From Escherichia coli (GTDB lineage: Bacteria; Pseudomonadota; Gammaproteobacteria; Enterobacterales; Enterobacteriaceae), in NCBI RefSeq assembly GCF_001677475.2, contig NZ_CP015229.1: DNA of 64,000 nt; one strand, written 5' to 3'. Both the position numbers and the translations under genes were made by a program. The notes beneath the pieces are model-generated. The model did no database searches and was not told the origin of the DNA. It was given only the letters and a program-made list of their open reading frames with translations. Below, in pieces: positions 11,901 through 12,074 of the stretch. How positions within the stretch are numbered: the first letter of the stretch is position 1; each line of letters begins with the position of its first letter.

Positions 11901-12074
11901 CCGACTATAGACTATTCAGATTAACTACCGCACTCTATGTTGGGTTTATATCCATGTCAGGAAACAGTTCATTTGTGAATCCTGACACCTGACTATGACT
12001 GTCGCCCAGGGATAATCCACAACCGCTGGAAGCAGTCTCATTTCATCAGGATAAAACCGTAGAGTGCGATTGCG

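Follow-up and report, generated by a model that had tools for sequence, protein, structure and literature searches.

A hairpin between type III effector genes of the Escherichia coli yieH-phoU islet is probably a chance inverted repeat in pseudogene debris of cbrC and yieH

Results

An effector islet between yieH and phoU

The DNA analyzed here, referred to as the window, is a stretch of 64,000 nucleotides from Escherichia coli (contig NZ_CP015229.1, assembly GCF_001677475.2). The locus of interest is an E. coli islet between yieH and phoU, comprising espY4 on the minus strand, a pentapeptide-repeat effector gene on the plus strand, and a second type III effector gene on the minus strand, as follows.

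8021-10446, minus strand: espY4 (Z5211-like effector), unit 1 of a putative duplication; from ORFs, RefSeq annotation, and colinear DNA matches to unit 2
10717-11900, plus strand: pentapeptide-repeat effector gene (EspX3' of O157), frameshifted into ORFs of 207 aa (10717-11340) and 194 aa (11316-11900); from RefSeq annotation
12369-14888, minus strand: espY5-like type III effector gene (Z5214-like), unit 2 of the putative duplication; from ORF and annotation

In O157 Sakai the corresponding names are EspY4, EspX3' (split), and EspY5' (PMC5931665). Induction of the islet by sulfamethoxazole-trimethoprim (PMC5931665) and by antibiotics (PMC4048457) is reported. The islet has the chromosomal position, the order of genes, and the AT-rich ORFan effectors of the Z5211-Z5214 islet, the "Z-locus" that, according to passages of Sankar et al. 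(2009, PMC2646131), O157:H7 and phylogroup D strains carry at the position of the bgl operon. Those passages describe bgl as "presumably replaced" by the islet and make known the paralogy of Z5211 and Z5214. The words "remnant," "pseudogene," and "duplication" are absent from the searched text of that paper, and the passages concerned carry no mention of cbrC or yieH fragments in the islet.

The spacer that follows the pentapeptide-repeat gene is present in 1,094 of 5,426 complete E. coli genomes, at one place per genome, and in 1,089 E. coli genomes it is 91 to 96% identical to the window spacer. The 194-aa ORF that precedes it represents the C-terminal half of an EspX3'-type gene broken by a frameshift; this gene is intact at 395 aa in many E. 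coli strains, and such an intact protein matches 10717-11900 in two frames with 90 to 91% identity (tblastn). The espY4 gene also looks disrupted, with a 90-aa ORF at 10174-10446 (the N-terminal part) and a 704-aa ORF at 8021-10135, both on the minus strand, while RefSeq has it as a single 802-aa gene of 2,409 nt. Its product and that of the espY5-like gene share 30% identity over 776 aligned positions (E = 4e-91).

The islet allele of the window is unusually divergent, at 84 to 94% identity per kilobase to strain C4 across 8000-15000 compared with 96 to 99.9% in the flanks. As the adeP-yieH region is only 92% identical to K-12, a non-coli Escherichia source was considered for the window, and it was rejected on the 99.3% identity of kup-rbs to E. 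coli and the match of the flanks to C4. By these sequence comparisons, the yieH-phoU locus is highly polymorphic, a hot spot of polymorphism. At ~20500-20800, between glmS and pstS, the window lacks ~5.4 kb that in C4 carries the lpf-O113 long polar fimbria operon. A 4.4-kb contig labeled "MAG: Collinsella sp." (JAIJJM010000244.1) is 92% identical to window positions 10062-14474 and, judged by this match, is almost certainly E. coli islet DNA that was misbinned.

The spacer contains decayed cbrC and yieH

An initial reading of the sequence alone had described the spacer as GC richer than the effector ORFs and possibly a remnant of different origin. Both points are borne out: GC content is 41.5% at 11900-12099 versus 23 to 28% in the 194-aa ORF, and 11902-12316 is decayed core-genome DNA lying between AT-rich effector genes. 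It holds the 5' flank and first 148 nt of cbrC, the 3' part of yieH, and a copied hairpin. The yieH-like fragment that the same reading had placed immediately after the hairpin is present; the cbrC fragment that separates the two had been missed.

11902-11974, plus strand: decayed cbrC (yieJ) upstream region; from local alignment to the yieH-cbrC intergenic region of E. albertii
11975-12122, plus strand: cbrC' pseudogene fragment, nt 1-148; from homology, with in-frame stops, truncated
12123-12232, plus strand: yieH' pseudogene fragment, yieH nt ~316-385 (12123-12198), an internal deletion, and the equivalent of the last ~34 nt with the stop (12199-12232)

Comparison loci for cbrC, a PF03691 family gene with the RefSeq product name colicin E2 tolerance protein CbrC, were obtained by scanning species-representative genomes with a degenerate cbrC motif, which returned E. 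albertii, two Escherichia spp., and Pseudocitrobacter. Positions 12012-12122 are 76 to 79% identical to cbrC of K-12, E. albertii, and the two Escherichia spp., and CbrC residues 14 to 49 match the window with 61% identity (tblastn, E = 1.6e-9). Upstream of this strong match, local alignment of 11901-12011 to the cbrC upstream and start region of E. albertii spans 11902-11993 with a score of 30, against 9.4 ± 1.5 for shuffles (z = 14). The same region gave no significant alignment to K-12, E1V33, MOD1-EC7003, or Pseudocitrobacter taken singly, so the remnant resembles an E. albertii-type allele. In a multispecies alignment, the window runs in colinear order and without gaps from the hairpin up to 12122, within the strong cbrC match. 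Taken as a whole, 11902-12122 keeps the order of the E. albertii yieH-cbrC-phoU locus, from the sequence upstream of cbrC through nt 148 of the gene.

Unlike the intact loci, the window copy of cbrC is dead. Its ATG has become GTG at 11975-11977 (GACAGGAYGTTTYTATG of K-12 and E. albertii corresponds to AACAGTTCATTTGTG here), the Shine-Dalgarno sequence is lost, the frame meets TGA at 11990-11992 and 11996-11998, and the gene is cut off at nt 148 and fused to yieH'. Two other assignments for this region were tried and rejected. A start codon at ATGACT (11995), which implies a 20-nt deletion and a hairpin left arm from the 3' end of K-12 cbrB, scored a nonsignificant 12 with K-12 against 10.4 ± 1.6, and the multispecies colinear alignment puts the start at the GTG of 11975. 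Coding of YieH residues 16 to 29 by the hairpin region was a weak match (tblastn, E = 2.6) and gave way to the cbrC homology.

A mobile or foreign origin of the spacer was likewise rejected. Searches of plasmid and phage collections yielded no match beyond the islet spacer or cbrC: only mislabeled chromosomes, cbrC copies, and a 62-nt cbrC-like stretch. The mislabeled entries are PLSDB "plasmid" records of 4.8 to 4.9 Mb that are whole chromosomes. The 62-nt stretch, 84% identical to the cbrC fragment, comes from the records of two Campylobacter phages, A18a and A11a, where it may represent either contamination or a homologue of cbrC.

In E. albertii, the two Escherichia spp., and Pseudocitrobacter vendiensis, yieH adjoins cbrC, and neither cbrB, bgl, nor the islet lies between them. 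Homology to the phoU side of the window begins directly after cbrC in three of these four loci, and the fourth (L015) has no such match. Comparison of these loci suggests that yieH-cbrC-phoU is the ancestral arrangement. In the passages of PMC2646131, yieJ is confined to K-12, S. flexneri, and E. albertii, with no other cbrC orthologues outside E. coli and Shigella.

For yieH', residues 102 to 128 of YieH match the window with 55% identity (tblastn, E = 2e-8), nucleotide identity to yieH alleles is 77 to 84% (blastn), and a sensitive search matches 12129-12186 to yieH. The internal deletion removes about nt 385-628, and the fragment then runs into a second structure, T', a copy of the hairpin T that lies downstream of intact yieH.

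7901-7963, unstranded: T, original hairpin between intact yieH and the 3' end of espY4; fold of -30.9 kcal/mol, z = -5.5
12249-12310, unstranded: T', long imperfect hairpin, copy of the one downstream of intact yieH; 12219-12316 is 81% identical to 7871-7969

The segment 7871-7969 comprises the last yieH codons and the hairpin downstream. Homology to islet-free genomes ends at the yieH stop codon, and T therefore belongs to the islet. T' folds at -21.0 kcal/mol on the plus strand and -26.9 kcal/mol on the minus strand (z = -3.9 and -5.3) and is followed on the plus strand by CUUUUC; a terminator scan made a minus-strand call within it, at 12301-12286. T' is the most terminator-like structure in the spacer. 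A weaker terminator-like hairpin at 12085-12113, AATACAGACT / AGTCTGTTTT, folds at -7.7 kcal/mol and continues into TTTTATT. It is made from former cbrC coding sequence (..PFYCV..) and is weakened in most other alleles.

The inverted repeat and its fold

Within the decayed cbrC 5' region lies the inverted repeat that first drew attention to the spacer, TGTCAGGA-AACAGTTCATTTGTGAA-TCCTGACA at 11955-11987. The 8-bp arms are perfect, as initially reported, and the loop is 17 nt; the end had been given as 11986, one base short.

11955-11962, unstranded: left arm TGTCAGGA, decayed cbrC 5' leader, ~-20 to -13 from the former start codon; from sequence and from alignment with E. albertii and other cbrC upstream regions
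11963-11979, unstranded: loop AACAGTTCATTTGTGAA, 17 nt, degenerated Shine-Dalgarno region and former cbrC start codon; from colinear alignment
11980-11987, unstranded: right arm TCCTGACA, former cbrC codons 2 to 5; from alignment

The computed RNA fold of the 33-mer has an energy of -12.6 kcal/mol on the plus strand and -12.0 kcal/mol on the minus strand, ~3 standard deviations below shuffles of the same 33 nt. Four of the 8 stem pairs are G-C. The complementary TTCA and TGAA noted earlier between the arms do occur (11968-11971 and 11976-11979), but the minimum-energy fold pairs ACAG with UUGU instead, and this weak inner helix partly closes the loop. Energy calculation and database search thus returned a stable structure and matches to cbrC, yieH, and E. 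coli islet alleles; this establishes that hairpin and matches exist, not that the hairpin functions.

Perfect 8-bp inverted repeats with loops of 3 to 30 nt number 79 in the 64-kb window, against 34 ± 7 in block shuffles. When every 33-nt segment of the window was scanned, 187 nonoverlapping sites folded at least as well as the hairpin. Inside 11700-12500 there are 10 inverted-repeat pairs, and the one at 11955-11987 is the shortest listed. Among 33-nt folds of the AT-rich islet, it is the best, and only 0.25% of GC-matched windows equal it. By these measures, the hairpin is only weakly beyond chance: the repeat is real and locally conspicuous, yet not improbable for a window of such size. A second perfect 8-bp inverted repeat, with arms CTGAATAG / CTATTCAG and a loop of 11 nt, lies at 11893-11919, overlapping the 194-aa ORF at its stop codon; it is not conserved in most E. 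coli alleles.

One arm is invariant and the other varies

Conservation of the stem was followed in 44 islet alleles: that of the window, those of 8 genome loci, and those of 35 metagenome contigs. To avoid bias, the contigs were fetched by a pattern in the flank and not by the hairpin itself. All 44 alleles have an identical right arm. The left arm reads TGTCAGGA in 13; another 26 have TGTCAGGT, which loses the inner pair, and 5 have TGTAAGGA, the O157 type, with an A.G mismatch in mid-stem. Stem-breaking variants of two types, all one-sided, thus occur in 31 of the 44; compensatory arm changes were found in none. With a folding energy of -5.7 kcal/mol (z = -0.3), the O157 allele is indistinguishable from shuffles. 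The perfect stem appears to be the ancestral form; it is common to the divergent window allele and several E. coli alleles.

The stem cannot form in five intact cbrC loci, so the repeat does not characterize functional cbrC leaders. In an eight-sequence alignment that includes these loci, only 50% of cells pair, a value reached by 95 of 500 shuffles, and six of the eight stem pairs depart only by unpaired cells. Variable sites make up 2 of 16 arm positions and 4 of the 33 hairpin positions, versus 23% of flanking columns; neither difference is significant (P = 0.24 and P = 0.087, respectively), and excess conservation of the arms was rejected.

Terminator, RNA element, or operator

The hairpin has two features of a Rho-independent terminator: it closely follows a stop codon, and G-C pairs make up half of its stem. 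It differs in lacking a U-tract, in a loop of 17 nt where 3 to 8 nt around a compact G+C-rich stem is usual, and in a stem that is not kept among orthologous loci; T' fits the class much better. No run of U or T follows the stem on either strand (the plus strand continues CCTGACTATGAC, and the minus strand TGGATATAAACC), and the terminator scan did not call the hairpin. On these two grounds, an intrinsic terminator was rejected. An Rfam scan of 10500-13500 at E ≤ 10 found nothing over the hairpin, only three subthreshold chance matches to eukaryotic microRNA and small nucleolar RNA families. Nor does the repeat behave as a member of the dispersed palindromic families REP/BIME or ERIC/IRU, as it occupies one place per genome in the 1,094 E. 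coli genomes.

A broader possibility is that the EspX3' transcript carries a putative RNA element in its 3' untranslated region: the stem-loop would act as a terminator without a U-tract, as a pause site, or as a barrier at the 3' end that shields the mRNA from exonucleases. The hairpin lies on the sense strand 55 nt past the stop codon at 11900, is the most stable short fold in the islet, and has an invariant right arm. Against this, the gene that it would serve is a frameshifted pseudogene in both the window and O157, most alleles weaken or break the stem and do not restore it, and the missing U-tract and scan call weigh as above. Better terminator-like hairpins are also at hand downstream, at 12085-12113 (then UUUUAUU) and at T' (then CUUUUC), and the sequence itself stems from the cbrC start region rather than from the effector gene. 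We regard such an element as unlikely.

A DNA-level role is more doubtful again. The arms could be the half-sites of a putative palindromic operator (8-N17-8) for a dimeric regulator of the neighboring effector genes, given that the dyad symmetry is perfect in the window and that each arm includes CTGACA, a -35-like hexamer according to the promoter scan. That scan, however, found 13 promoter-like sites where shuffles predict 13.1. The arm octamer occurs three times in the 64 kb, two of these being the arms themselves, against 1.6 expected, and is absent from the effector promoter regions; a repeated half-site motif was rejected on this lack of enrichment. An operator conserves both half-sites in a motif that recurs at regulated promoters, whereas the left half-site here is altered in 70% of alleles (31 of 44). 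A center-to-center spacing of 25 bp is unusual for operators, and the site sits between two convergent gene ends rather than in a promoter region. We consider this explanation very improbable.

The sequence-only suggestion of a regulatory or termination structure finds no support: there is no U/T run, scan call, or Rfam match, intact cbrC has no stem, 31 of 44 alleles break the stem with no compensation, and the O157 fold is that of shuffled sequence.

A junction between cbrC and yieH

The point at which cbrC' passes into yieH' is a short sequence shared by both genes.

12116-12122, plus strand: junction microhomology TGCGTTG, common to cbrC (TAT TGC GTT GAT) and yieH (ATG TGC GTT GTC); from side-by-side sequences

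Inside these 7 nt, the sequence passes from cbrC nt 148 to yieH nt ~316. Five colinear DNA matches (E = 9e-5 to 4e-28) connect 7550-10596 to 12139-15041, pairing the middle of yieH, T, and espY4 with its upstream region to yieH', T', and the espY5-like gene with its upstream region. The distance from T or T' to the adjacent effector 3' end is nearly the same in the two units, at 52 and 53 nt. The locus thus has two colinear, direct paralogous units, the distal end of one being joined to the proximal end of the other at a microhomology. From this organization, the cbrC-5'::yieH-3' junction looks like the scar of a tandem duplication that built the islet.

Scars of tandem duplication or unequal crossover at short microhomologies are a general mechanism of illegitimate recombination. 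The window junction resembles them in its novel 3'-part::5'-part join, its 7-nt microhomology, and its two flanking colinear paralogous units. It differs in that the units are old and very diverged (81% identity between T and T', ~71% for the effector DNA, and 30% at the amino acid level) and in that the second lacks its distal part, so we infer the duplication rather than observe it. A single-unit precursor (yieH-T-effector-pentapeptide gene-cbrC-phoU) was not found among the loci fetched; apart from one islet contig, every locus returned by the genome scan with the cbrC motif was an islet-free yieH-cbrC-phoU locus.

Discussion

To address the nature of the hairpin, we compared its sequence with intact cbrC loci and with other islet alleles. 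We conclude, with a probability of roughly 0.8, that it is a fortuitous, lineage-specific inverted repeat in pseudogene debris with no dedicated function. Its parts have separate origins: the left arm is former cbrC 5' leader, the loop is the dead ribosome-binding site and start codon, and the right arm is cbrC codons 2 to 5, where the E. albertii codons ACT CAT AAC ACC have become A ATC CTG ACA CC. Once the fragment had ceased to be a gene, ordinary substitutions together with a single small indel would have created the complementarity, and the hairpin would have been eroding neutrally since. Should EspX3' transcripts extend through this region as a 3' untranslated tail, they would form the stem. 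A more plausible place for them to end would lie downstream, either the U-tract hairpin of 12085-12113 or T' (12249-12310), and the hairpin would then remain inside the tail.

Several observations run against an origin by chance. The hairpin is the best 33-nt fold of the islet, with few GC-matched windows as stable. Across the alleles, the constancy of the right arm and the apparent ancestry of the perfect form point the same way, as do somewhat fewer variable sites than in the flanks (the P = 0.087 comparison), and the cluster of changes in the left arm could hint at a nonrandom origin. A minor RNA-level effect may also exist.

The clustered changes raise an alternative in which the repeat is nonfunctional but a single template switch during replication (quasi-palindrome correction) copied one arm from the other, perfecting an imperfect repeat. 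Compared with E. albertii, the left arm differs at 5 of 8 positions and by a 2-nt indel, while the right arm differs at 2 of 8. At ~30% divergence of the nearest outgroup over this segment, however, clustered differences are not unusual; the 5' leader is also the least certain part of the alignment, and none of the 44 islet alleles is an intermediate. A template switch therefore seems improbable, and we retain ordinary substitution in decaying cbrC sequence as the source of the repeat.

The wider history of the spacer can be proposed with less assurance. We lean, by a modest margin, toward a spacer that keeps the recombination junction which built the EspY4/EspX3'/EspY5' islet, the hairpin being a by-product. 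The background would have been an E. albertii-like yieH-cbrC-phoU locus rather than one in which the islet simply replaced bgl. A tandem duplication, by unequal crossover, of the segment running from yieH nt ~316 through an effector gene to cbrC nt 148 would produce both the junction and the paralogous espY4 and espY5 units. The same junction is also expected from unequal crossover between two alleles that had diverged. Later, the pentapeptide-repeat gene and cbrC would have been lost from the second unit. Such a duplication would explain the paralogy of Z5211 and Z5214 noted in the passages of PMC2646131.

As a regulatory or termination element, the hairpin has no importance, and the evidence points to an accidental repeat. 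The value of the spacer lies in its identity. Debris of two core genes, cbrC' and yieH', explains the GC-richer patch in an AT-rich effector islet, and recognizing it as such should prevent misannotated small ORFs or "structured RNAs" in this region. The islet itself is already known, and the reading of a duplication junction is, mildly, the new point. The junction and the two colinear units provide a concrete history for a well-studied polymorphic locus (bgl versus Z-locus), suggesting a yieH-cbrC-phoU ancestor and an origin of EspY4 and EspY5 by duplication.
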